This document shows, one piece after another, positions 4,279 through 41,454 of a stretch of 46,703 bases of DNA. The translations under genes and the position numbers were made by a program. Below the pieces are notes generated by a model. The model was not told the origin of the DNA. It ran no database searches and was given only the letters and a program-made list of their open reading frames with translations. The DNA is from an uncultured Bacilli bacterium (GTDB lineage: Bacteria; Bacillota_I; Bacilli_A; RF39; UBA660), in the NCBI GenBank assembly GCA_944363935.1, contig CALVVT010000044.1, positions 1-46,703 of the forward strand, written 5' to 3'. Every line of letters begins with the position of its first letter. The stretch's first letter is position 1.

Positions 4279-7200
4279 ATGTATAGAGAAAAACGGCGGA
4301 ACAAGATTATTATATTTATTTTAACAGGTATTTTATGTTTAATGGGGGTCGGTTATGCGGCTTTTAAAACCAGTATTAATATAACGGGGACAACCGATAT
4401 TAGTAGTACTTGGGATATAAAAATAATAAGTGCGGACGTAACTGATACAAATGGAACGGGAGAAAATGTTAAAAACACTTATAATGATTTAAGTGCGAGT
4501 TTAGAAGCTAATTTATATGAAAAAGGAGATTATGTAGAATATAGTATTATAGTAGAAAACAAAGGAACATTTGATGCGAAATTAGAAACTATTGGTATTA
4601 CTAATAGTAACAATGAAGCTGTTAAAATAACCAGTTCAGGTTTAACTAAAGGACAAACACTTTATAAAAATACAACAGCTACTTTAAAAGTAAAAATAGA
4701 ATATAATTCTTCCTATGAAGGAGATGCATCAGGAACTAGTGGAGAAGCTAAAATAGATTTAGATTTTGTTCAAAATAGTGGCGGAACAATAGAACCAGAA
4801 AAGAATCATTTAGTAACATATGATTATAGTATTAATGAAGGAACTAGTACTAATGCCGAAAACGAATATATAAATGAAGGAGAAAGTATTAATTTAAGTT
4901 ATACAGCAACTAAAGAAGGATATGAGTTTGTGGGATGGAATACGAATAAAGATGCAATTGAAGGACTTACAGAACTTACAATGGGAACTAGTGATATAAC
5001 TTTATATGCGATATTTAAAAAGCCCGATACAACTCCACCGATAATTGAAAATGTCAGTACTAGTTCAACAACTAATAGTATAACAGTAGTAGTAACAGCC
5101 AGTGACGAAGAAAGTGGAATAAGTAAATACGAATATAAAATAAATGATAATGAGTGGGTAGATAATGGAACTAGTAATACTTATACTTTTACAGGACTTA
5201 CTCAAAATACAGGATATGAGATAAGTGTTAGAGTCACTAATGGAGTAGATTTAACAGCTGAAGAAGAAGTAAGTGAAAGTATAAAACTTACAAATAATGT
5301 TGTAACAACTGGAGATGGCCTATATAAAGACAGTACTGAAGAAGGACGATATATTTATAAGGGCGCAAGCCCTAATAATTATGTAAGTTTTAATAATGAA
5401 TTATGGCGAATTATTTCTATTGAAACTGATGGAACAATGAAAATAGCAAATACTAAAGGTTTAAGTGAAAGAGCTTTTGATACTTCAGGAAATAGAAGTA
5501 GTACTTATTGTAATAATTCTAGTAATGGATGTAATGCTTGGGGAAGTAGCAGTACAACATATGATAAAGATAAAAATAAAGTCACAGCAATAAGTGATAC
5601 ATATTCTAGTTCAAGTACATATGCTTTACCAAGTAAAGAAGCAAGTTTAAATACTTATTTAAATGGTGATTATTATAATAGTTTAACTAGTGTAGCTCAA
5701 AATCAAATAGATAATCATTATTTTAATGTAGGAACAGTATCAGCATCAAGTAGCAATACTTTAGAGACTGATATGCTTGAAGAAGGAAAATATAAATGGC
5801 TTGGTAAAATAGGCTTATTAAATATAACAGATTATGTAAAAGCTAGTACAAATAGTGTTTGTGATAGTATATATGATTATGGTTCTAATACAAGTTGTTA
5901 TAATAATAGTAATAATCATAATTGGCTTTCAGTAACGAAAGCTAGTTATCCAAGATATATAAATGGAAGTTCTGGAAGTAGATATAATATATGGGGATTA
6001 AATCATACTTCATATAATATAGGAAGAAATGGAACAGCGTCAGCTAATAATTATGGTATATTACCAGCATTATATTTGAAAAATAGTGTAAGTATAGTAA
6101 GTGGAAAAGGAACAAGCACAGAACCTTATAATTTAGGGACAGGAGTAAGTACAAGTGTATTAGATGTTCCAACTTTTAGTGAAGAAAGAATCAATAATGG
6201 AATAACAGTTACTATAACTTACCCCGAAGGAGAAGGATTAACATATGAATATCAAAAAGATAGTGGAGAATGGCAAACAGCGACCCAAAATCAAGAAGTA
6301 GAGTTTACTGAAAATGGAACTTTAGTAGCCAGAGTAAGTGATGGAATTAATGAAGTAAATACAAGCACTTATACAGTAGAAATTGGGGCGTCTTTTGGTG
6401 GAGTAAATATTCCGCTTGTAGAAACAGGTGATGGATTATATAGAGATTTGTATGAAGAAAATGTTTACATATATCGAGGAAGTAACCCCAATAATTATGT
6501 AACATTTAATGGAGAAAGTTGGAGAATAATTAGTGTCAATACTTTAAATAATACTATAAAAATAATTAAAACGGAATTTATTGATAGTGAAAAAGTTTAT
6601 GATGGTTATCTTAATAGATCATCTGAATATTGTGATTATCCAACTTGGGGATGTAATATTTGGGGAAGTAGTAGCACATTATATGATGTAAATATGCATC
6701 CAATAACAGAGTTGGCGCGCGAAGTAAATGGAACAAAATATGCGTTACCAAGTAAAGAAGCAGAGTTAAATACATACTTAAATACCACATATTATAATGG
6801 ATTAAATGAGGTAGCAAGGAGTATGATAAAAGAAGATGCAGTGTATAAAGTAGGAGTATTAGATTATGGTGATGCAAGTATGAATCAAGATATAGAGCAA
6901 GTAAATGCAGTGAAATGGCTTGGTAAAGTTGCTTTAATTGATGTTACTGAATACGCGAGAGCCAGCACTAATAGTGCTTGCTCGAGAGTTAATAGTTATA
7001 ATGCGAACTTTGATTGCTATAATGATATACAAAATTGGATGTTTAATAATACTAGTTGGTGGACTATAACTCCTATTTCTAGTGATTCTACTAGTTATGT
7101 AAGACGAGTTGGATCTTTAAGTACAAGTACTGGGTCGTATCAGCCTTTGGGGTCTTCCCGAGTTAATGATACATTTAATAATACTCGTCCTGTAGTAACA

Positions 7201-7293
7201 TTATCTCCTGATGTTAAAATAACATCGGGTAATGGAAGTTCTAGATCACCGTATATGATCACTATAATAAATTTACATTATTTTTACATATAA
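4279..7293 (+). CDS. Large secreted modular protein: SipW-class signal + TasA-like subunit domain + InlB B-repeat + FN3-like + two DUF6273-like domains
   Basis: LMGVGYAAF signal end; YSIIVENKGTFDAKL; KEGYEFVGWNT...DITLYAIF; DTTPP...TYTFTGLTQNTGYEISVRVT; two copies of G(A/S)xPNNYVxFN.E.WRIIS...(P/RP)..L. Confidence 0.75.
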   Translation: MYREKRRNKIIIFILTGILCLMGVGYAAFKTSINITGTTDISSTWDIKIISADVTDTNGTGENVKNTYNDLSASLEANLYEKGDYVEYSIIVENKGTFDAKLETIGITNSNNEAVKITSSGLTKGQTLYKNTTATLKVKIEYNSSYEGDASGTSGEAKIDLDFVQNSGGTIEPEKNHLVTYDYSINEGTSTNAENEYINEGESINLSYTATKEGYEFVGWNTNKDAIEGLTELTMGTSDITLYAIFKKPDTTPPIIENVSTSSTTNSITVVVTASDEESGISKYEYKINDNEWVDNGTSNTYTFTGLTQNTGYEISVRVTNGVDLTAEEEVSESIKLTNNVVTTGDGLYKDSTEEGRYIYKGASPNNYVSFNNELWRIISIETDGTMKIANTKGLSERAFDTSGNRSSTYCNNSSNGCNAWGSSSTTYDKDKNKVTAISDTYSSSSTYALPSKEASLNTYLNGDYYNSLTSVAQNQIDNHYFNVGTVSASSSNTLETDMLEEGKYKWLGKIGLLNITDYVKASTNSVCDSIYDYGSNTSCYNNSNNHNWLSVTKASYPRYINGSSGSRYNIWGLNHTSYNIGRNGTASANNYGILPALYLKNSVSIVSGKGTSTEPYNLGTGVSTSVLDVPTFSEERINNGITVTITYPEGEGLTYEYQKDSGEWQTATQNQEVEFTENGTLVARVSDGINEVNTSTYTVEIGASFGGVNIPLVETGDGLYRDLYEENVYIYRGSNPNNYVTFNGESWRIISVNTLNNTIKIIKTEFIDSEKVYDGYLNRSSEYCDYPTWGCNIWGSSSTLYDVNMHPITELAREVNGTKYALPSKEAELNTYLNTTYYNGLNEVARSMIKEDAVYKVGVLDYGDASMNQDIEQVNAVKWLGKVALIDVTEYARASTNSACSRVNSYNANFDCYNDIQNWMFNNTSWWTITPISSDSTSYVRRVGSLSTSTGSYQPLGSSRVNDTFNNTRPVVTLSPDVKITSGNGSSRSPYMITIINLHYFYI

Positions 7294-12696: not shown

Positions 12697-13911
12697 ATGA
12701 ATAAAATAATAATGCACATTGATGTTAATAATGCTTTTCTTTCATGGAGCGCGGTTTTACTTTTAAAACAAGGTTATAAAGAAGATATAAGAAATACTTA
12801 TGCTATTATAGGTGGCGACGAAAAATCAAGACATGGTATTGTTCTAGCTAAATCAACACCAGCTAAACAGAAAGGAATTGTAACTGCTGAAACGATATTT
12901 TCAGCTAAAAAGAAATGCCCAAACTTAAAAATATATCCCCCTAATTATAATTTTTATAAAAAAATGAGTGATAGTTTATTTAATTTAATTAGTAAATATA
13001 CACCAGATATAGAGAAAATGAGTATTGACGAATGTTTTATTGATTACACTCCCGTTAAACATTTATATGGTAATGAAATAGATTTTGCCTATAAGTTAAA
13101 AAAAGAAATAAAAGATACTTTAGGTTTTACCGTTAATATTGGTATTGCTAATAATAAAATATGTGCGAAAATGGCTTCTGATTTATCTAAACCTGATAAA
13201 GTTCATACTTTGTTTTCTAATGAAATTAAAACTAAAATGTGGCCACTTCCTATTAATAAATTATTTGGAATAGGTAAAAGAAGCACGATAAAACTTCAAA
13301 ATTTAGGGATTAAAACCATAGCCGATTTAGCAAGTTTCCCGGAAAAAATTCTTTATAAAACTTTTAAAAATCAAAGTATTGATATGATAAATGCAGCTAA
13401 TGGAATTGGTTCTGATTTTGTTGATAGTAGTTATCTAGAACCTAAAGGTATTGGTAATGAAACAACTTTAAAAAACAATATTTATACTAAAGAAGAACTT
13501 TATCCTTATTTATTAGCTTTATCAGAAAATGTTACCTTAAGACTTCGTAAACAAGATAAATATGCTTATGTAGTAGTTGTTACTTTAAAAGATAAATTTT
13601 TTAAAAGAAAAAGCCATCAAAAAAAATTAGTAAATGCTACTAATATTACCGAAGAAGTTTATCAAACAGCAGTAAATATTTTAAATGAAATGGATATTGG
13701 TGAAGGAGTTAGATTAATAGGGGTTAGACTTAATAATTTAACTGATTACTCTAACCATCAAGTTTCTTTATTTGAAAATATTGATAAAAGAGATAATAAT
13801 TCTTCTTTAGAAAAAGCTGTGGATAATTTAAAAGAAAAATATGGTTTTAAAATTATCGATAAAGCATCTTTATCAGATGTTAAAGTAGGAAAAAAGTATT
13901 TAAATAAATAA
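12697..13911 (+). CDS. dinB: DNA polymerase IV (Y family)
   Basis: MHIDVNNAF, SIDECFID, AKMASDLSKPD, VRLIGV. Confidence 0.93.
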   Translation: MNKIIMHIDVNNAFLSWSAVLLLKQGYKEDIRNTYAIIGGDEKSRHGIVLAKSTPAKQKGIVTAETIFSAKKKCPNLKIYPPNYNFYKKMSDSLFNLISKYTPDIEKMSIDECFIDYTPVKHLYGNEIDFAYKLKKEIKDTLGFTVNIGIANNKICAKMASDLSKPDKVHTLFSNEIKTKMWPLPINKLFGIGKRSTIKLQNLGIKTIADLASFPEKILYKTFKNQSIDMINAANGIGSDFVDSSYLEPKGIGNETTLKNNIYTKEELYPYLLALSENVTLRLRKQDKYAYVVVVTLKDKFFKRKSHQKKLVNATNITEEVYQTAVNILNEMDIGEGVRLIGVRLNNLTDYSNHQVSLFENIDKRDNNSSLEKAVDNLKEKYGFKIIDKASLSDVKVGKKYLNK

Positions 13912-13912
13912 T

Positions 13913-14149
13913 TTATATATCTTTTCTATCTAAATCTTTAGCATTAAACTTTTCACCTGTTATATTATTTTTAAAATATATAGTATAGCCACATAAATTG
14001 GCTATTTTTTCTATTGTTTCAAAATTTACATCAGTTGTTTCTGTTTCATACCTAGAAAGGGTATTTTGTTTAATATTTATAGCTTTTGCAATATCTTTTT
14101 GATTTAAATTTTTATTAGAACGCATATATTTTAAAACTTTTCCTATCAT
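13913..14149 (-). CDS. XRE-family HTH transcriptional regulator
   Basis: LNQKDIAKAINIKQNTLSRYE; GGTGAT SD before the ATG at 14149. Confidence 0.85.
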   Translation of the reverse strand: MIGKVLKYMRSNKNLNQKDIAKAINIKQNTLSRYETETTDVNFETIEKIANLCGYTIYFKNNITGEKFNAKDLDRKDI

Positions 14150-14256
14150 GTTATCACCAATTAAATTATCTAACAAACGAATAAAATTGTCTGACATATC
14201 CAAAAACATGATATATAATTTCAATATAATATCCCAATATAGGATAGGTGATAATT

Positions 14257-15267
14257 ATGAGAAGACATAGAAGTAGAAGAAGAAATAAGCAAAGAAATAT
14301 TATTATAATTAGTGCATGTACAATTCTTCTTTTTATGACAGTAGGTTATGCGGCTATGAGTACTAATTTAGAGATAAATGCTAAAGGGAATGTTATTAAA
14401 CAAGATACATTAGGAGAAGATTTAATTGAAAGTGCTGGAGTAGTAAGTAGTGGAGATGGTCTTTATAAAGATGCCTATGAAGATAATGTATATACCTATA
14501 GAGGAAGTAATCCCAATAATTATGTTACATTTAATAATGAACTTTGGCGAATAATAAGTGTCAATACCGCAGATAATACAATGAAAATATTAAAAGAAGA
14601 GCCATTGGAAAATAGAGCCTTTGATACAAGTAGTAATGGAAGATATGATGGTCAGTATTGCAATGATAGTGGTGGATGTAATATCTATGGAAGTACAAGT
14701 ACATTATATGATATAAATTTAAGCCCAATTACGACGTTAGCGAGAGAAGTTGGAAAAACAGCTTATAACCTACCTATTAAAGAGGCGTCATTAAATACAT
14801 ATTTAAATGAAACGTATTATAATAGCTTAAATGATATAGCGAAAGAAATGATTGTAGTTGGAATATATAAAGTTGGAATATTAGAATATAATAGTCCTGA
14901 TATGACAACAGATATAAATCGGGTAAATTCAGTAAAATGGAAAGGTAAAGTTGCTTTGATTGATATTACAGAATATGTCAGAGCCAGTACGTATAGTAGT
15001 TGTGAAAATATACATAGTTTGTGGCCACAAAACACACCTTGCGGAAATCAAAATTATATGTTTAGTAATTTTGCGTGGTGGACAATATCACCATATTCTC
15101 ATTTATATTCGAATCGAATATGGTATATTGATAATAAAGGAATATTTTATGGTAGTTATGAAACAGATTATGATTACGGCGTCCGTCCTGTAGTAACGTT
15201 ATCAGGAGAAGTAAAAATAACTTCGGGTGATGGCACGCAAAATAATAGCTACCAATTAAGTTTATAA
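14257..15267 (+). CDS. Secreted protein: SipW-class signal + short N-terminal strand + single DUF6273-like domain
   Basis: FMTVGYAAMSTNLEINAKG; YRGSNPNNYVTFNNELWRIIS; WWTISP...GVRPVVTL...SGDGT. Confidence 0.75.
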   Translation: MRRHRSRRRNKQRNIIIISACTILLFMTVGYAAMSTNLEINAKGNVIKQDTLGEDLIESAGVVSSGDGLYKDAYEDNVYTYRGSNPNNYVTFNNELWRIISVNTADNTMKILKEEPLENRAFDTSSNGRYDGQYCNDSGGCNIYGSTSTLYDINLSPITTLAREVGKTAYNLPIKEASLNTYLNETYYNSLNDIAKEMIVVGIYKVGILEYNSPDMTTDINRVNSVKWKGKVALIDITEYVRASTYSSCENIHSLWPQNTPCGNQNYMFSNFAWWTISPYSHLYSNRIWYIDNKGIFYGSYETDYDYGVRPVVTLSGEVKITSGDGTQNNSYQLSL

Positions 15268-15278
15268 AAAAATATATC

Positions 15279-15551
15279 TTGTATAAATTTATAAGATATG
15301 GTATATTTTATTTAAGGAGGGGCTTCACCTTGTGGTGTTTGCAATGGGTTTGGCAAGCACAGATTATTTAATTGTAACTGTGCTTTTTGTTATTAAAATT
15401 AATAACAATATGATAATTATGAAATTATAAAATGAAAACTCATTATTATGTTTCATAATTATTATTCCTTTCTGTGGTTTGGTTTGCCAAAATCCCCAGA
15501 AATAGGCAGGCACAGAAGGTATAAGAGGCCCCTCTATATATAATTATATTA
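15279..15551. ncRNA. Structured repeat unit 1, type I toxin-antitoxin-like locus
   Basis: Plus-strand promoter TTGTAT-17-TATATT; end-to-end pairing GAGGGGC..ACCTT.GTG / CAC..AAGGT..GCCCCTC; encloses a minus-strand peptide ORF. Confidence 0.5.
15364..15456 (-). CDS. 30-aa hydrophobic peptide MKHNNEFSFYNFIIIILLLILITKSTVTIK (putative type I toxin)
   Basis: AGAAAGGA SD 9 nt upstream; single TM segment; absent from the ORF track. Confidence 0.5.
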   Translation of the reverse strand: MKHNNEFSFYNFIIIILLLILITKSTVTIK

Positions 15552-15579
15552 TTTTTATAAAAAATAAAAAAAAAACATC

Positions 15580-15862
15580 TTGTATAATTTCATACAATAT
15601 GGTATATTCTAAACCAAGGGGGACTTTAATTTTTGAACTCGCAGAATATTTGGTGGAAGTACAGCTTACATAATTATAGTTATAATTATGTTTGTTGTTA
15701 TTAATTTAATCATTAAGACTATTAAGTAACATGATAATTATAGAATGAAAATTCATTATTATGTTTTACAGTTGCTACTCCTTTCTATCGTAACTGTTTT
15801 TAAGGACACTTATGTATTTTTTGAAGGGAAAATATAAAAGGTCCCCCTATATATAATTATAT
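15580..15862. repeat. Structured repeat unit 2, diverged tandem copy with a disrupted peptide ORF
   Basis: Same promoter, AGGGGGAC/GTCCCCCT terminal pairing, shared AATGAAAAyTCATTATTATGTTT and TCCTTTCT blocks; the ATG position reads GTA and the frame stops after 15 codons. Confidence 0.55.
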
Positions 15863-15939
15863 TAAAAGTCAGTTTATGGCTTTTTTTCTTTTAAAAAAAA
15901 GTGTATAATTATAAAAGAAAATATAAATAGAGGTGTATT

Positions 15940-16389
15940 ATGAAAAAAAGAATAATTTTTATTAGTTTATTATTAATAATTGTATTAATAATTATTTTGT
16001 TAATGGTTTTTAATCAAAGAAAAACTGGAAAAGTTGAAATTACTGATATTGAAATCAGTAATACTGAAGGTAATGCTGTTAATGAAAAGAAACCTAGTTT
16101 TAATGATTTAACTGCTACTTTTAACGTTGATTTAAAAGAGGCTAGTGATAGTCTTACCTATTTAATTAAAGTTAAAAATAATGGTAATAGTAAAGTAAAA
16201 CTATATAACGTTGAAATGGATATTGCTAATAATTCTAATATTACTGCTGAAGTTTTAGGAATTGAATCTGGTGATTCTTTAAATGAAAATGAAGAAGCTT
16301 TAATACCAGTTAAAATTGGTTATTTAGAAGATGTTTTGGAAGAAGAAAACGGTAGTTCAGAAATTAAAGTTACATTAATATACAAGTAA
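15940..16389 (+). CDS. Membrane-anchored TasA-like subunit domain lacking the GYAA cleavage motif and N-terminal strand
   Basis: TM followed directly by KVEITDIE...ATFNVDLKEASDSLTYLIKVKNNG, which aligns by eye with the 19065/19696 products. Confidence 0.7.
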   Translation: MKKRIIFISLLLIIVLIIILLMVFNQRKTGKVEITDIEISNTEGNAVNEKKPSFNDLTATFNVDLKEASDSLTYLIKVKNNGNSKVKLYNVEMDIANNSNITAEVLGIESGDSLNENEEALIPVKIGYLEDVLEEENGSSEIKVTLIYK

Positions 16390-16399
16390 GGAGATAAGC

Positions 16400-18538
16400 A
16401 TGAATAAAGAAATAATTGAAAACATAAGTAAAGAATTAAATATAAAGACTACGCAAACAGAAAAAACTTTAAAATTGTTAGAAGAAGGTAATACCATACC
16501 TTTTATTGCGAGATATCGTAAAGAAGTAACAGGTAATTTAAATGAAGAAGAAATTAGACAAATAAATGAAGTTTATATGTATGAAGTAAACTTATTAAAA
16601 AGAAAAGAAGATGTTATTAGATTAATTGACGAAAAAGGGTTATTGACAGAAGATTTAAAAAATCAAATAATGAAAGCTAGTAAACTTGTTGAAGTTGAAG
16701 ACTTGTATCGGACTTTTAAAAAAAAGAAAAAAACAAAAGCTACTGAAGCTATAAAAAATGGTTTAGAGCCTTTAGCTAAACAAATAATGGCTTTTACTAC
16801 TAAATCATTAGAAGAATTAGTAACGCCTTATTTAAATGATAAAGTAAAAACTAAAGAAGATGCTCTTACTGGAGCTGGTTATATAATAGCTGAATGGATA
16901 AGTGATAATGCTTTTTACCGTAAATGGATAAGAAAGTATATGTATAATGAAGGAATTCTTGTAACTAAAAAGAAAAAAAATGCTGAAGACGAAAATAAAG
17001 TATATGAAATGTATTATGATTTTAGTGAAAGAATAAAATACGCTAAAGAGTATAGAGTAATGGCTATTAATAGAGCCGAAAAAGAAAAAATAATCACAGT
17101 TAATATCGATATTGATAAAGATAAAATAATAAATTATTTGGAAAATAAATTGATAAAGAAAGAAGCTCCTTTTAATTATATAATTGTAGATAGTATTAAA
17201 GATAGTTTAAAAAGATTAATCTTACCATCAGTAGAAAGAGAAATAAGAAGTGAACTAACTTTAAAAGCTGAAGACGAAGCTGTTAAAAATTTTGGGCTTA
17301 ATTTAGAAAACTTGTTAATGCAACCACCAATGAAAGAAAAAATGGTATTAGGTTTTGATCCTGCTTATAGAACTGGTTGTAAACTTGCCGTAGTTGATTA
17401 TACTGGAAAACTTATAGATATTAAAGTTATTTATCCTCATGAGCCTAAAAATGAAAAAGAAAAAAGCAAAAAAATATTATTAGATTTAATTGATAAATAT
17501 AAAATAGATATTATTGCTATTGGTAATGGAACCGCATCTCGTGAAAGTGAAGCTTTTGTAGCGGAAACAATTAAAGAAGCTAAACATAAGTGTGAGTATG
17601 TAATTGTTAGTGAAGCTGGAGCTTCTGTTTATTCAGCTAGTAAACTTGCTATTAAAGAATTTCCTAATCTTCACGTCGAAGAACGAAGTGCGATAAGTAT
17701 TGCTAGAAGACTCCAAGACCCGCTTTCAGAACTCGTTAAAATCGACCCTGAAAGTATTGGTGTTGGTATGTATCAGCACGATGTAGCTAATAAAAAATTA
17801 ACCGAATCATTAGACTTTGTTGTGACAAAATCTGTAAACAATGTTGGGGTTAATATTAATACAGCCAGTCCTAGTTTACTTAAATATGTATCAGGTTTAA
17901 CTAAAACAAATATCGATAAAATAATTAAGTACCGAGATACTCATGGTAAGTTTTTAGATAGAGACGAAGTAAAAAAACTCCTTTCAAGTAAAACATATAC
18001 GCAGGCTATTGGTTTTTTAAGAATATTAGAAGGAAATAATATATTAGATGCCACTGATATTCACCCAGAAAGTTATAATATTGTTTTGCGCCTTTTAAGC
18101 TTGTTAAATCTAAATATTAAAGATATAGGAACCCCTGATTTTAATCAAAAATTAAATATCGATATTAAAGAATATGCAGCTAAATTAAATACTGATATTT
18201 ATACATTAGAAGATATTATTAAATCGTTAAAAAAACCTAATAGAGACCCTAGAGACGAAATGCCAAAACCAATTTTGAAAAGCGATATTTTGCATTTGGA
18301 AGATTTAAAAAAAGGAATGAAATTACAAGGAACAGTAAGAAATGTTACCCCATTTGGAGCTTTTATCGATATAGGACTTAAAAATGATGGCCTTGCCCAT
18401 ATTTCTAAACTTACAGATAAATTTATTAAACACCCTAGTGAAGTAGTTAATGTCGGCGATATTGTCGATTGCTATGTTGACGAAGTTAATTTTGATAAAA
18501 AGAAAGTATCTTTATCTTTAACCGAGGTTAAAGCATGA
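16400..18538 (+). CDS. tex: Tex family RNA-binding transcriptional accessory protein
   Basis: GNTIPFIARYRKE, GFDPAYRTGCK, SEAGASVYSAS, C-terminal S1 domain. Confidence 0.95.
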   Translation: MNKEIIENISKELNIKTTQTEKTLKLLEEGNTIPFIARYRKEVTGNLNEEEIRQINEVYMYEVNLLKRKEDVIRLIDEKGLLTEDLKNQIMKASKLVEVEDLYRTFKKKKKTKATEAIKNGLEPLAKQIMAFTTKSLEELVTPYLNDKVKTKEDALTGAGYIIAEWISDNAFYRKWIRKYMYNEGILVTKKKKNAEDENKVYEMYYDFSERIKYAKEYRVMAINRAEKEKIITVNIDIDKDKIINYLENKLIKKEAPFNYIIVDSIKDSLKRLILPSVEREIRSELTLKAEDEAVKNFGLNLENLLMQPPMKEKMVLGFDPAYRTGCKLAVVDYTGKLIDIKVIYPHEPKNEKEKSKKILLDLIDKYKIDIIAIGNGTASRESEAFVAETIKEAKHKCEYVIVSEAGASVYSASKLAIKEFPNLHVEERSAISIARRLQDPLSELVKIDPESIGVGMYQHDVANKKLTESLDFVVTKSVNNVGVNINTASPSLLKYVSGLTKTNIDKIIKYRDTHGKFLDRDEVKKLLSSKTYTQAIGFLRILEGNNILDATDIHPESYNIVLRLLSLLNLNIKDIGTPDFNQKLNIDIKEYAAKLNTDIYTLEDIIKSLKKPNRDPRDEMPKPILKSDILHLEDLKKGMKLQGTVRNVTPFGAFIDIGLKNDGLAHISKLTDKFIKHPSEVVNVGDIVDCYVDEVNFDKKKVSLSLTEVKA

Positions 18539-19064: not shown

Positions 19065-19607
19065 ATGGACGGAAAACGTGAATCAAGAAACAAGAATATT
19101 TTAATAGGAGCTTTAATCGCTGTAGTTCTTATTATGGGAGTAGGTTATGCCGCATTCGCACAACAACTTACTATCAATGGTAGTGCTAACATTACATCTA
19201 CTTGGGATGTACATATCCAAAGTATTGAACCAGGTGAACCAGTTGGAACTGCTTCAAATGTGAGTGCTACTGTTAATCCATCAGATAATACTAAAGCAAC
19301 ATTTAGTGCTAACTTAAAAAGTCCAGGTGACAGCATTACTTATACTGTAACTGTTGTTAATGCCGGAAATATCCCAGCTATGGTTAATACTGATGGTATT
19401 ACATTTACTGAAGGTGAAAACCAAGGTGCTATTAGTTATAGCTATGCTGGAATTAACGATGGTACTAAAGTAGCTGCTAATAATGGAACAGCAAAGTTTA
19501 CAGTAACCGTTACTTATGACGATACTGTAACAAGTCAACCTGCATCTGAAGATTTAACAAATACTATTACTATGGCTCTTGATTTTGTTCAAGACACAAC
19601 AGCTTAA
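19065..19607 (+). CDS. TasA/CalY-like secreted fibre subunit 1
   Basis: IMGVGYAAFAQQLTING; LKSPGDSITYTVTVVNAG; beta-rich; strong AGAAAGGA SD; upstream of the SipW-type peptidase. Confidence 0.75.
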   Translation: MDGKRESRNKNILIGALIAVVLIMGVGYAAFAQQLTINGSANITSTWDVHIQSIEPGEPVGTASNVSATVNPSDNTKATFSANLKSPGDSITYTVTVVNAGNIPAMVNTDGITFTEGENQGAISYSYAGINDGTKVAANNGTAKFTVTVTYDDTVTSQPASEDLTNTITMALDFVQDTTA

Positions 19608-19695
19608 TAAAGTTAAAAAATTATCTGGCAAGTGTTATTCTTTAACTAGTCTTGCCAAAAACATTACACATGAAAAAGTAGAAAGGAAGATATAA

Positions 19696-20223
19696 ATGAA
19701 CGCAAAAACAAAAAATGCTTTAATTGGTGGATTACTTGCAATTGTCTTTGTTATGGCCGTAGGTTATGCTGCATTCGCACAACAACTTACTATTAATGGA
19801 ACTGCTACAGTAACATCAAACTGGCAAGTAGAAATGACTGATATTGAAGCAACTAGTACTAATGGAACTGGTACTGATATTCCTTATGTTGAAACTACAG
19901 CTGAAGATGGTACTCAATTAATTAATGCTTCAACTGCCAAGTTTAAAGCTGATTTAAAAAGCCCAGGAGATTCAGTTACTTATACTGTAACTGTTGAAAA
20001 CAAAGGTGATATTAATGCTAAAGTTGCAAGTATTAGTTTTGAAGAAGGAGACAGTACAGCACCTATAAGTTACACGTATAGTGGTATTAATCAAGACGAC
20101 GTTTTAAATGCTAGTGATAATACTACATTTACAGTAACTGTAACTTATGACGCTACTGTTGAAGGTCAACCTGAAACAACTAGTAATACTTTAACAATGC
20201 ATGTTAATTACAAACAAGCTTAA
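19696..20223 (+). CDS. TasA/CalY-like secreted fibre subunit 2 (paralog)
   Basis: VMAVGYAAFAQQLTING; LKSPGDSVTYTVTVENKG. Confidence 0.75.
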   Translation: MNAKTKNALIGGLLAIVFVMAVGYAAFAQQLTINGTATVTSNWQVEMTDIEATSTNGTGTDIPYVETTAEDGTQLINASTAKFKADLKSPGDSVTYTVTVENKGDINAKVASISFEEGDSTAPISYTYSGINQDDVLNASDNTTFTVTVTYDATVEGQPETTSNTLTMHVNYKQA

Positions 20224-20250
20224 TAGTACTTTAAAAGTACTATTTTTTTT
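20224..20250 (+). terminator. Intrinsic terminator after the subunit pair
   Basis: TAGTACTTT-AAAAGTACTA hairpin followed by a T run. Confidence 0.75.
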
Positions 20251-20346
20251 CACTATGGTATTGCCATATTTTTTCACTTATGCTATAATTATTATAGTAG
20301 TAAAGAAGTGCTTTTAAGCATTAAATCCATAAAAAGGGGTAATATT

Positions 20347-21486
20347 ATGATTAAGTTAATATTATTATATGGACTACTAATAGGATATTTATTTTTAGAT
20401 GTTTTAATCTTATCACCAGCAGAAATACCTTATTATAATTCTTTATTAAATCCTTTAATATTATTAGCTATTACTGGCCTTGCTTATTATTTTAGTAAGG
20501 ACGAGCAGGTTAGAATAGCCGAAAAAAACAATAAATTTCAAAGTATGTTAATTGTTTTATTCTTTTATATTATTGGATATTATGCATTAGGTTTTATCTT
20601 TGGTTTCCAAAGAACACCATATTCTAAAGATATTTTAAGCATTATAAGTAATATATGGATATTTGGCAATGTTATTTTCTTCCAAGAAATAATCAGGAAT
20701 GCTATGATTAAAATGGAAAAGAAAAGCATGCTTAATTTTATTTTAATTACCGTATTATTTATTTTCTTAAATATAAATTATAATAATTTAGTGGATAATT
20801 TTGAAACATTTAAAGACGGATTTACTTATGTTTCTTCGGTGATAATACCTTTAGTGGTTTCAAATGCTGTAATGACATATTTATCTTATGTTGGTGGAGC
20901 TAAATTTCCGATTGTTTACCGGTTATTTGTTTTATTACCGGAATTAGTAATGCCAATCATCCCTGATTTAGATTGGTTTGTAACAGCAATTGTTGGTGTA
21001 GTTTTACCAATGGTAGTATTTATTTATATAAATTATGTTCATGTTAAAAAAACTGAAAGATTATCTAGAAGGGCAAGTAAAAATTATAATCCAATAGTTT
21101 ATATTCCAGTTTTAATTTTAATTGCTTTATTAGCCGGATTTGTTATTGGATTATTTAAATATCAACCAATTGCCGTTTTATCAGGTAGTATGTCACCAAC
21201 CTTTAATAGAGGTGATGCGGTAGTTGTTCGTAAATTAAACAAATATGAAAAACAAAACCTTGAAAAAGGAGATGTTATCCAGTATACCAGTGGTTCTAAA
21301 TATGTTGTTCACCGAATTGTCGAAATAACAAATGACGAGTTTGGTAATATTCAGTATATTACTAAAGGAGACCACAATAATACAAGAGATACAATGCCAG
21401 TTTCTCTAGACCAAATTGTCGGTAAAGTTTCTTTCTCAATACCATATATCGGTTATCCTTCAGTTTGGCTTAGTGGCGCAATATAA
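20347..21486 (+). CDS. SipW/ER-type (S26B) signal peptidase I fused to an N-terminal multipass membrane domain
   Basis: VLSGSMSP (Ser), GD, VVHRIV (His), TKGDHN, IPYIGY; about 8 hydrophobic segments precede the catalytic domain. Confidence 0.88.
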   Translation: MIKLILLYGLLIGYLFLDVLILSPAEIPYYNSLLNPLILLAITGLAYYFSKDEQVRIAEKNNKFQSMLIVLFFYIIGYYALGFIFGFQRTPYSKDILSIISNIWIFGNVIFFQEIIRNAMIKMEKKSMLNFILITVLFIFLNINYNNLVDNFETFKDGFTYVSSVIIPLVVSNAVMTYLSYVGGAKFPIVYRLFVLLPELVMPIIPDLDWFVTAIVGVVLPMVVFIYINYVHVKKTERLSRRASKNYNPIVYIPVLILIALLAGFVIGLFKYQPIAVLSGSMSPTFNRGDAVVVRKLNKYEKQNLEKGDVIQYTSGSKYVVHRIVEITNDEFGNIQYITKGDHNNTRDTMPVSLDQIVGKVSFSIPYIGYPSVWLSGAI

Positions 21487-21501
21487 AAAGGGGAGAATAA
21501 T

Positions 21502-22584
21502 ATGAAATTAAAAAATGAAAACAAACTAATATTAAAACAGTGGGTTCGCGTATTTTTTCTAATTGTTATTGTTGCTATGATAGCACTATCCGTTTTCTTA
21601 ATTGTAAAGTCAATGAGTAAGGATACAAGTAGAGAAGAACTTTATAATTATAACTATAATAGTAATTTAGACTATAAAGTTTATTTAAAAAACAATGCTT
21701 TCTTTACAACTCCTTATTTAGGAATGAATAAACAATATATCGCATCTTTAATTGATCATATTGATGTTGATACTAGTTTTGATTTACAAAGTAGTGCGGA
21801 TTTAAATTATACCTATACTTATCAAATAATTGCTCAAGTTAATGGTGCTTATCAATCAGCTGAAGGAAAATCAATAAATATTTGGTCAAAAGATTATACG
21901 GTTGCTCCAGCTGAAACGCAAAGTGGTAGTGGTAATAAAATTACCATTAATAAAAATATTAGTTTAAATTATGACGAATATAACCGTATTATGACAGAAT
22001 TTAGAGATGCTTTTGGTTTATCAATTGATGCTTCTGTTGATTTAATTTTAAAAGTTGATGTTAATGGTAAAATGAAGGACGAAGAGACAGAATCTTTACA
22101 TGAAAGTAATGAGTTTACTTTAAATATTCCACTGCTTGAACCAACAATTCAAATAAAACCAGATTATGTTAATAATGGTAGAGAAGTTGTCTATGCTGCT
22201 GAAGATACTAGTAAAACTATTAATATTCCATTATTAGTTGTTGGAGTAGCATTATTACTATTATCATTAGTTATCTTAAAAACATTATGGTCTAGTTTGA
22301 TTAGAATTACTAAAAAATCAGAATATGTTATCGAACTTAATAAGATATTAAAAGAATATGCTGATATTATTGCTGAATCTACAAACTTACCTGATTTATC
22401 ACAATATGATGTTGTTAACATTAAACACTTCCGTGATTTAGTTGATATTGAAGAAGAACTTCGAGTACCAATTCTTTATACAGAAGTTCGTGAAGACTTT
22501 GAAAGTTGGTTTATCATTATTACTGAAAATACCGCTTATAAGTTTGTTTTAAAACAAAGTGATTTAATTGTATTTCAGAAATAG
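21502..22584 (+). CDS. DUF5305-like two-TM membrane protein
   Basis: TM, LDYKVYLKNN beta-rich ectodomain, TM, cytoplasmic FRDLVDIEEELRVPILY. Confidence 0.7.
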   Translation: MKLKNENKLILKQWVRVFFLIVIVAMIALSVFLIVKSMSKDTSREELYNYNYNSNLDYKVYLKNNAFFTTPYLGMNKQYIASLIDHIDVDTSFDLQSSADLNYTYTYQIIAQVNGAYQSAEGKSINIWSKDYTVAPAETQSGSGNKITINKNISLNYDEYNRIMTEFRDAFGLSIDASVDLILKVDVNGKMKDEETESLHESNEFTLNIPLLEPTIQIKPDYVNNGREVVYAAEDTSKTINIPLLVVGVALLLLSLVILKTLWSSLIRITKKSEYVIELNKILKEYADIIAESTNLPDLSQYDVVNIKHFRDLVDIEEELRVPILYTEVREDFESWFIIITENTAYKFVLKQSDLIVFQK

Positions 22585-40668: not shown

Positions 40669-41454
40669 TTAACTGGTACAAACTGGAGTAGTAACACCTT
40701 CGGTAATATGAATATCAGAATTAAATGGAGTAGAAGTAACAGTAATTATTTGTCTAGTTCCATAATAATCTTTAGTTCCATAAAGGCTATAATTACCTGG
40801 ATTAACATTAGTTAAAGTATAATTTCCTTCAGCATCAGTAGTTGTTTCATATAAAGCAACACAGTCTTTGTAAATAGTTACTAAACATTTCGCACAAGGA
40901 ACGTCATTATAATAAACTTTTCCTGATACAGTAGTTGGGTTTTCTCCGGGAGCTTCAGCTTGTTCATACTGTAAATCAACAGTTAAAGAAGCTTCAGTTC
41001 CTGGCCCTGCACTTTTGACATATTCGGCTTTAACATTTAAAATTCGGCTTTCTCCAGCTTTTACAACATCACCAACGTAAAAACCAGAAGTTGTAAATTT
41101 AATGGCATCGTTTTCGTCATAATTTAAAACTAAACTACTTAAACTAGCATTAATAGTTCCAGTATTAGTTATTTTAACTGCATATTCAATACTATCACCA
41201 ACTTGTATAAAATTACAGTTAAAAGTAGCTGAATTAGCAGTAAAGGAAGGTTCTATAATATTAGTCGCACTACCTATAGTTTGACTAGTATTAACATCAG
41301 TAATTTTAATTCCCCATGAACCATTAACATAACCTTTAGCGTTAATTTTTAAATTAGTTGAAAAAGCCATATAAGCTACTGCCATAAAACAGATTAAAAC
41401 AAGTAATATTGTAATAACTAAACCTTTTTTCTGTGATTTTGTCATTGTTTTCAT
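40669..41454 (-). CDS. TasA-like subunit with a C-terminal carboxypeptidase-regulatory-like beta-sandwich
   Basis: FMAVAYMAFSTNLKINAKG; VGDSIEYAVKITNTG; TVSGKV...TTTDAEGNYTLTNVNPGNY. Confidence 0.7.
   Translation of the reverse strand: MKTMTKSQKKGLVITILLVLICFMAVAYMAFSTNLKINAKGYVNGSWGIKITDVNTSQTIGSATNIIEPSFTANSATFNCNFIQVGDSIEYAVKITNTGTINASLSSLVLNYDENDAIKFTTSGFYVGDVVKAGESRILNVKAEYVKSAGPGTEASLTVDLQYEQAEAPGENPTTVSGKVYYNDVPCAKCLVTIYKDCVALYETTTDAEGNYTLTNVNPGNYSLYGTKDYYGTRQIITVTSTPFNSDIHITEGVTTPVCTS

Follow-up and report, generated by a model that had tools for sequence, protein, structure and literature searches.

A strand-only lectin and a membrane-tethered subunit domain as putative plug and socket members of a GYAA-strand family in an uncultured Bacilli bacterium

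The subject of this analysis is a pair of neighbouring genes, encoding proteins of 339 and 149 amino acids (aa), in a 46,703-nucleotide stretch of DNA (the whole of which we call the window) that forms contig C44 of the genome of an uncultured Bacilli bacterium (assembly GCA_944363935.1; 1.27 Mb in 95 contigs, ~27% G+C). The original prediction, made from the sequence alone, took the two products for complementary half-subunits of a donor-strand fibre, one a donor-only tip with an adhesin-like domain and the other an acceptor-only membrane base. Five genes, the pair and two small fibre subunit genes among them, stand on one strand within 8 kb; Tex and a lipoprotein gene come between the pair and the subunit genes, and the core machine itself spans window positions 19065-22584. 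These features are as follows, with ORF standing for open reading frame, TM for transmembrane and Ig for immunoglobulin.

14248..15267, + strand: gene for the 339-aa protein, with a GTG start; signal peptide, GYA/A site, conserved free strand, linker and DUF6273 C-type-lectin-like domain
14353..14397, + strand: conserved N-terminal strand segment, a putative donor strand (residues 36-50; from alignment and monomer model)
14440..15264, + strand: lectin-like head including DUF6273 (residues 65-339; from structure model and Foldseek)
15940..16389, + strand: gene for the 149-aa protein; TM helix at residues 5-23, then directly an Ig-like subunit domain (about residues 28-149)
19065..19607, + strand: 180-aa small fibre subunit with signal, GYAAF, strand and subunit domain (from ORF and alignment)
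19696..20223, + strand: 175-aa small fibre subunit (from alignment, homologues and model)
20308..21486, + strand: archaeal/SipW-type signal peptidase I, 392 aa, with a polytopic N-terminal membrane domain (TIGR02228, E 1.1e-28)
21502..22584, + strand: DUF5305 protein, a proposed peptidase accessory (Pfam PF17231, E 2.4e-19)

The 339-aa protein opens with a basic n-region, a hydrophobic segment at residues 18-36 and the residues G33-Y34-A35-A36. Its ORF runs from the GTG at 14248; the ATG at 14257, which the original prediction had taken as the start, is in frame and gives a 336-aa form that is the database entry P0122. Alignment with the 175-aa and 180-aa small subunits (p175 and p180, which share 47% identity) is limited to its first ~60 residues (E about 1e-4), and the protein therefore lacks a subunit domain, so that the predicted layout of signal and strand without such a domain is borne out and 'donor-only' holds as a description of its architecture. 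The class is populous (1145 matches at E <= 0.001). We aligned 54 of 120 listed matches, picked for a query coverage of at least about 92%, so that their full-length likeness is partly by construction. G33, Y34, A35 and T39 are invariant in these 54 homologues, I43, A45, K46, G47 and N48 are at least 90% conserved, and the strand of the 339-aa protein retains the alternating pattern of the subunits, L-x-I-x-small-x-small-x-I/V. Beyond the strand come a variable linker and then a conserved head. Judged by this alignment, the 339-aa type is a conserved class.

DUF6273 is recognised in the 339-aa protein at 34.2 bits against a cut-off of 23.5 (Pfam PF19789). In the monomer model the head begins at residue 65, with a predicted local distance difference test score (pLDDT) of mostly 94-98 and of 80-88 in a few blocks, and its sole significant structural match in Foldseek is the IgA peptidase 9qa6 of Thomasclavelia ramosa (E 3.9e-10), of which residues 31-322 are named the DUF6273 N-terminal domain in the report on that enzyme (PMC12402451). 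The account of the phage tentaclins describes the same Pfam domain as C-type-lectin-like, as a receptor-binding tip and as a target of diversity-generating retroelements (PMC10743442). The label 'adhesin-like' for the head is thus a reasonable one. A search of NCBIfam gave no family for the 339-aa protein and sub-threshold rows for the other query proteins, and none of its SipW-cognate signal models fired. A related head (phmmer E 6.7e-34; no Pfam family at E 0.01) is also found in other Bacilli metagenome-assembled genomes behind a type IV pilin-like N-terminus, G/F-x-x-x-E, at L030:717-2009 (+ strand) and probably also at L011:20-1104 (- strand). One head on two different filament-entry signals would fit a role as tip or cargo.

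The 149-aa protein is the counterpart of this architecture. Its domain matches the 175-aa and 180-aa subunits with BLASTP E values of 3e-12 and 1e-8, far beyond chance, and in the alignment its helix lies opposite their signal peptides, the GYAA site is replaced and a strand block of about 10-15 residues is missing. Alignment and hydropathy thus agree with what had been predicted for it, namely a subunit domain set directly on a TM helix without GYAA site or strand. Having a signal-anchor and an acceptor domain and neither site nor strand, such a protein could hold a strand and could not extend a fibre. The gene looks functional. Its upstream DNA contains a perfect TATAAT and the ribosome-binding site AGAGGTG, its reading frame extends untruncated through the whole domain, and the family-invariant N80 and G82 are retained. 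Independent studies have also yielded DNA contigs, in metagenome assemblies, in which the ORF is intact; one run differs by a synonymous change and a change of the last codon, and another shows no change in the parts it covers.

Next to the small subunits lie the peptidase and DUF5305. In a crude hydropathy scan the peptidase has eight hydrophobic windows (two of them overlapping), all before the catalytic part. It is present in all five relatives searched, and in all four loci read there the block consists of one to ten small GYAAF subunit genes (7, 4, 10 and, at a contig end, at least 1), then the peptidase, then DUF5305; a 556-561-aa housekeeping gene precedes it in the three loci that reach that far. 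DUF5305 was found in 23 of 24 genomes of the genus and in none of 16 genomes of other families of the class, and the subunit domain in all 24, weakly in the one genome of a second family and in none of the 15 others; the genomes are kin, so the counts are not independent. One complete relative has an additional, divergent peptidase (28% identity) with a further DUF5305 gene behind it (G011:C1:185226-187364), and two to four matches to DUF5305 occur in several other genomes of the genus, so that more than one such system may operate in some species. A scan of all ORFs for sorting signals returned 28 rows, none of them a member of the family, in a genome with five sortases and walled-cell genes. 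Since no member bears a sorting signal, the predicted independence from sortase holds for the GYAA-strand family.

The family itself is large. A genome-wide phmmer census with six query proteins matched 63 ORFs or fragments, among which the peptidase and the DUF5305 protein are counted, along with two matches that are weak or fragmentary. Twenty-four have the motif together with a subunit domain, and 14 of these also one to three DUF6273-type modules. Nine are of the 339-aa type (six whole, three cut by contig ends), seven are short stubs of the motif alone and 15 are lectin-module ORFs without the N-terminus. Another four have the subunit domain and no regular motif: an N-terminally truncated member, one with a variant site and strand, an ORF on contig C90 and the 149-aa protein. 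The lectin head thus follows a whole subunit domain in the same chain more often than it stands without one, as in the 1004-aa protein of the window. Of 40 rows from a genome-wide motif scan, 37 carry the basic-hydrophobic-GYAA-strand arrangement, on products that range from stubs to ~1000 aa. Two further members lie in the window:

4279..7293, + strand: 1004-aa family member with signal, strand, subunit domain, Listeria-Bacteroides repeat, fn3 and two DUF6273-type modules (from census and domain search)
40669..41454, - strand: 261-aa family member with the variant site AYMAF, strand, subunit domain and a CarboxypepD_reg-like domain (from census and domain search)

In the 261-aa protein the CarboxypepD_reg-like domain stands in the place of the lectin module.

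Several lines of evidence bear on whether the strand is donated. In both alignments few parts are as well conserved as the segment that follows the GYA site; among the subunits (112 of 120 listed homologues, with eight near-duplicates or fragments left out) A25, L31 and W43 are invariant and A26, F27, I33, G35, A37 and S41 are at least 90% conserved. In the AlphaFold2 model of p175, residues 25-44 have no secondary structure and the pLDDT averages 54 over residues 21-30 and 60 over residues 31-40, as against more than 90 in the domain, and in the 339-aa model residues 33-52 likewise have a pLDDT below 50 and no secondary structure. Both monomer models therefore predict a free strand that does not fold in cis, as strand donation would require; folding into its own chain, the outcome named beforehand as fatal to the idea, was seen in neither. 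A profile of the 112 subunits had AbpX (9sj2_C) as its top match among PDB sequences, weakly (E 0.097, 15.9 bits). The TasA/camelysin family PF12389 is matched weakly by 14 of the 112 (best E 0.0015), with no match above the Pfam cut-off for the subunits of the window. The ESM Atlas returned only 'hypothetical protein' clusters of Bacillota for the 175-aa protein. We put strand donation in the GYAA-strand family at roughly two in three, and the small subunits most likely polymerise by donating their N-terminal strand to the next subunit.

The best explanation, to which we give an even chance, is that the locus belongs to an AbpX/Tafi-type system of the TasA superfamily, in which the 339-aa protein is a plug-only lectin and the 149-aa protein a socket-only derivative. 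Taken as a whole, and held with the same evenly divided confidence, the explanation is of a genus-restricted family that has its own polytopic SipW-type peptidase, partnered by DUF5305, for processing, both ORFs being real if atypical members. The peptidase, with DUF5305, would cut after G-Y-A, as the -3/-1 rule and the invariance of these residues suggest, and the freed strand of each family protein would insert into the groove of another subunit domain. The small subunits would then form the shaft and the subunit-plus-lectin proteins would be decorated subunits in line with it. Strand-only lectins such as the 339-aa protein could only end a chain, presenting the lectin head without a pilin domain of their own, and the strand would dock either at the fibre end or in the groove of a subunit-plus-lectin protein. 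Uncleaved, TM-tethered members could in turn only begin a chain, and the 149-aa protein may be an extra, species-specific socket that holds one donor strand at the membrane and cannot extend the fibre.

A number of results weigh against this explanation, and they concern both the strand and the pair. As to the strand, the subunit fold is a generic Ig/PapD-like sandwich whose best match (Z 7.4) is the PapD-like domain of CEP192, a centrosomal protein, and the donor-strand pilins sit in the same Z band without standing out (0406 thread 6.5, AbpA 6.0, TasA 5.3). TasA (8aur) aligns with the 175-aa model at Z 5.3 with a root-mean-square deviation of 3.2 over 109 residues, among many rows of unrelated Ig-like domains, and Foldseek found no match for the model in the PDB at E <= 0.001; AbpX entries are absent from these fold-search lists, and the PDB copy may predate them. 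We therefore make no fold-level assignment for the 175-aa model. The acidic residue of the AbpX donor strand, part of its calcium site, has no counterpart either, since the subunit consensus contains no D or E between GYA and W43. The mature 339-aa protein (residues 35-339) and the 149-aa domain (residues 27-149) were also modelled as a complex from alignments of 54 and 53 rows, respectively; the interface score (ipSAE) was 0.01 in both runs against a mark of 0.32, in runs made without controls, and this counts neither for nor against docking. Strand insertion is putative for the family.

As to the pair, Tex, the 339-aa gene and the 149-aa gene are all absent from the core block in the four relatives whose loci were read. 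A word-indexed search of 5.8 billion proteins found only the 149-aa protein's own cluster (99% identity, six members). HMMER against 1.84 billion representatives gave 319 relatives at E <= 0.001, the next-best after the protein itself at E 3.9e-15 and 33% identity, and no match among those representatives exceeded 47% identity, a value that spans 74 residues. No orthologue was found in the 40 genomes of the genus survey, where the best match, at 40% identity, is the N-terminal module of larger, regular family proteins. The protein has lost near-invariant residues (P-G of SPGDS, the Q-P motif and W43), and its terminal branch in the family tree (25 rows, placement unresolved) measures 2.12 changes per column against a median of 0.059. 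The metatranscriptome data searched contain no RNA contig on either the 339-aa or the 149-aa gene. At the junction of dinB and tex in four relatives (L015-L018), dinB abuts tex directly in two, one has a different family gene on the other strand and one a different neighbour. This variability marks the helix-turn-helix (HTH) gene upstream, the 339-aa gene, the repeats behind it and the 149-aa gene as an insertion of ~2.5 kb (window 13846-16533). The orphan status, lost residues, long branch and insertion site of the 149-aa gene could equally mean decay. The gene is a young, fast-evolving, species-specific copy, the protein is not the conserved base of the system and the adjacency of the two genes is not a conserved pairing.

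Whatever the standing of the 149-aa gene, similar builds recur. Of 150 listed HMMER matches to the 149-aa protein we picked ten by alignment offsets that left no extra N-terminal residues. Four of these, of 154-161 aa, have an N-terminal hydrophobic segment directly before the domain; two, of 207 and 209 aa, begin with a classical signal peptide, lack the strand and end in a VPxT[SA]-TM-basic tail; the rest comprise one degenerate, two regular and one truncated protein. The strand-less P0280 and P0317 (loci L026-L029) have a signal peptide and this sorting-signal-like tail, and in their sequences they resemble wall- or membrane-anchored acceptor-only subunits. Seven loci were found for P0280; none of the six that were read lies beside a peptidase/DUF5305 locus, which gives no operon-level support. 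The ORF on contig C90 is the other member without a regular strand:

C90:7890-8429 (L019:4891-5430), - strand: 179-aa strand-variant family member (from synteny and alignment)

Its orthologues lie at L021-L025, L033-L036 and L038. The gene stands between tgt, a gene for a 121-aa membrane protein and a MurJ-like gene in its own genome (G000) and in four of five relatives' loci, the fifth having the same neighbours around a 327-aa form. The motif F-A-Q-P-L at the membrane exit is found in all 11 members of the orthogroup that were read, with a proline in place of the strand's second Q. In six of the 11 the frame runs on for 50-180 residues upstream of the hydrophobic segment, with conserved sequence there in four, and this extension argues for a type II membrane anchor and not a cleaved signal peptide. 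The C90 branch is the longest of the family tree (3.23). By its synteny and alignment, the C90 orthogroup is a better candidate for a general base than the 149-aa gene, and the idea of an acceptor-only subunit with an anchor is sound even if the 149-aa gene is not the general base.

The remaining features of the insertion are listed here.

13913..14224, - strand: XRE-type HTH regulator, divergent from the 339-aa gene (Pfam HTH_3, E 2.1e-12)
14191..14219, + strand: site ahead of the 339-aa gene that resembles a promoter (agreement with the consensus at 11 of 12 positions; shuffled sequence gives as many such sites as the region has)
15268..15939, no strand given: ORF-free spacer of two tandem diverged copies (about 70% identical) of a ~300-bp multicopy structured repeat (from sequence comparison and folding)

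The 339-aa and 149-aa genes are thus 672 bp of repeat DNA apart, each with a promoter-like site of its own. The repeat has seven copies in the genome, often at contig ends and beside family genes, and is present in only four of 26 genomes of the genus. For one unit (15308-15552) the folding energy is -87.7 kcal/mol (z = -9.0); the fold is closed by a stem, a promoter-like site precedes the unit, and Rfam gave nothing for the spacer even at E <= 1. The repeat may be a small structured RNA or an element like a miniature inverted-repeat transposable element. A tblastn search of the spacer with all ORFs for a pseudogene remnant gave matches at E <= 0.01 that cover only the end of the 339-aa gene, the remaining ones (E > 0.01) being short and at chance level. 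Only one RNA run shared words with a 2.8-kb stretch (share 0.05). This metatranscriptome run holds a single 207-nt contig that lies in the repeat (window 15323-15529) with three differences, a hint that the unit is transcribed, although the contig may also stem from DNA carry-over or another copy of the repeat. DNA-contig joints in two runs that skip 13846-16533 were considered as an insertion-free allele and rejected, their shorter side being 21 letters and too short.

Among the alternatives, the one that survives best is that the 149-aa ORF is a relic, a decaying or functionless family gene whose complementarity to its neighbour is a coincidence in a family that duplicates, fuses and breaks. 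We consider this a real but minority possibility. The wealth of fragments (the seven stubs and the 15 lectin-module ORFs without the N-terminus) speaks for it, as do the long branch, the lost near-invariant residues, the want of orthologues and the mobile-looking repeats that flank the gene. Against it stand the full length of the ORF, its -10 box and good ribosome-binding site, its intact state in metagenome assemblies of independent origin, the retention of N80 and G82 and the recurrence of the same build in unrelated lineages and in published anchors. A second alternative, in our view doubtful, sees the whole as a display system of plugs and sockets, with one universal strand on at least 33 genes (nine strand-only lectins among them) and interchangeable heads that are mounted on a scaffold or on sockets such as the 149-aa and C90 proteins. 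The 339-aa/149-aa pair would on that account be a minimal two-part adhesin, joined by strand insertion without any fibre, which we hold to be just as doubtful.

It is unlikely, although the presence of the motif on 37 ORFs of varied size and content could suggest it, that no strand is donated at all, GYAA and the following segment being a recognition signal for the peptidase and DUF5305, the proteins being released or membrane-bound and the 339-aa protein an ordinary secreted lectin. The fold search does not single out donor-strand pilins, yet some 15 conserved residues of alternating hydrophobicity, past the cleavage site, are long for a peptidase determinant, the strand is predicted unstructured beside a folded domain in both models and the relatives TasA, AbpX and tafi have solved donor-strand fibres. 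Least likely of all is the strict form of the original prediction, in which the 175/180-aa fibre carries the 339-aa protein at its distal tip and is based in the membrane on the 149-aa protein, all of them making up one dedicated sortase-independent pilus: the complementary architectures, the five genes on one strand within 8 kb, the lack of family members in the 28-row scan despite five sortases and the layout described for tafi favour it, but Tex and the lipoprotein gene separate the pair from the subunits, the pair lies in a variable insertion and is missing from the core loci of all four relatives, the 149-aa protein has no orthologue, and nine 339-type genes face only the 149-aa and C90 members without a regular strand. 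The co-occurrence expected of dedicated partners thus failed, the four relatives carrying subunits, peptidase and DUF5305 without either gene. What stands of the tip-and-anchor idea is the complementary architectures in a setting of SipW-type peptidase and DUF5305 and their agreement with the published tafi/AbpX scheme; what does not is that the two are conserved partners of the fibre locus.

Returning to the AbpX/Tafi-type explanation, strand insertion, if true, would mean that a small-genome gut bacterium devotes a conspicuous share of its coding capacity to one modular principle of attachment, in which lectin heads are fitted, by a short universal strand and independently of sortase, to a fibre or to a socket in the membrane. 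It would explain how uncultured, reduced Bacilli in the guts of animals present and exchange their adhesins. The 339-aa class would then be a very small, testable model of a 'donor-only' tip, and the conserved member with a TM anchor a concrete candidate for the cell anchor that TasA-type fibres have long been missing.

How, then, does this system compare with those already known? In chaperone-usher pili such as those tipped by FimH or PapG, donor-strand complementation gives a fixed polarity with special end subunits that lack a strand or a usable groove, and the adhesin is an acceptor-only tip subunit. The lectin here is in contrast donor-only, and the genome has neither chaperone nor usher. 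Sortase-dependent Gram-positive pili carry an LPXTG-type signal on their subunits, which was not found here in the 28-row scan. Compared with other DUF6273 proteins, the head of the 339-aa protein shares the likeness to 9qa6 but has no peptidase domain behind it.

The TapA protein of B. subtilis is reportedly linked to cell attachment as a cell-proximal anchor, not a distal adhesin, and B. subtilis is not known to have DUF5305 or a polytopic peptidase. Its tapA-sipW-tasA system is described as forming TasA fibres by donor-strand exchange, with TapA as nucleator or chaperone (PMC9674648, PMC10151520). The likeness lies in the SipW-type peptidase and in TapA, which by those accounts gives a strand without being a shaft subunit and so sets a precedent for 'donor-only'.

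The haloarchaeal tafi are reported to have a tip (TafC), a shaft (TafE/TafA), an anchor (TafF), a peptidase (TafD) and TafG, which is DUF5305 (PMC11821415, PMC12337348). Shared with them are the dedicated peptidase with DUF5305 and, as those reports describe the pilins, Ig/jelly-roll subunits with an N-terminal donor strand, which is putative here. The tip is described as giving its strand and pointing its binding domain outwards, and the 339-aa protein likewise has a free strand, of putative donation, and a lectin-like head; the predicted polarity, in which the tip donates and the anchor accepts, is that modelled for tafi. The Natrinema anchors TafF1/F2 are described as one TM helix followed by a pilin-like domain (PMC11821415, PMC12337348), the same build as the 149-aa protein as far as architecture goes. 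The differences are that tafi pilins use twin-arginine translocation (Tat), whereas an RR motif is absent from the n-region of both small subunits, of 175 and 180 aa; that tafi genes stand in one locus, whereas the 339-aa and 149-aa genes lie outside the conserved one; and that TafC is reported as two-domain, whereas the 339-aa protein is a lectin head without a subunit domain. The tip and anchor roles of tafi are themselves presented as models.

For the AbpX-like loci, which occur in Bacillota and elsewhere, a preprint describes a ten-TM signal peptidase (SPase) I and DUF5305 together with minor subunits and with tip proteins and anchors that are predicted; their co-assembly through donor strands is modelled there with AlphaFold3 (bioRxiv 10.64898/2026.01.04.697558). 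Alike are the polytopic SPase I beside the subunits, the adjacent DUF5305 (here and in all four relatives), the presence of several small paralogous subunits and an aromatic residue close to where the mature strand begins. The subunit similarity is weak by comparison (the E of 0.097 given above), the strand here has no conserved acidic residue, and the bacterial anchors are described in the preprint as S-layer homology (SLH) or LPXTG proteins, whereas the putative ones here are N-terminal TM stubs; the family here has moreover grown to dozens of genes, with lectin modules as fusion partners. The scheme of tip, shaft and anchor with peptidase and DUF5305 is thus not new, having been in print, as models, since 2025-2026. 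As it stands, our analysis adds a bacterial example to the scheme published in 2025-2026 for archaea and AbpX-like loci, and what is particular to it is the size of the family in a small genome, the conserved strand-only lectins and the membrane-tethered members without a working strand.

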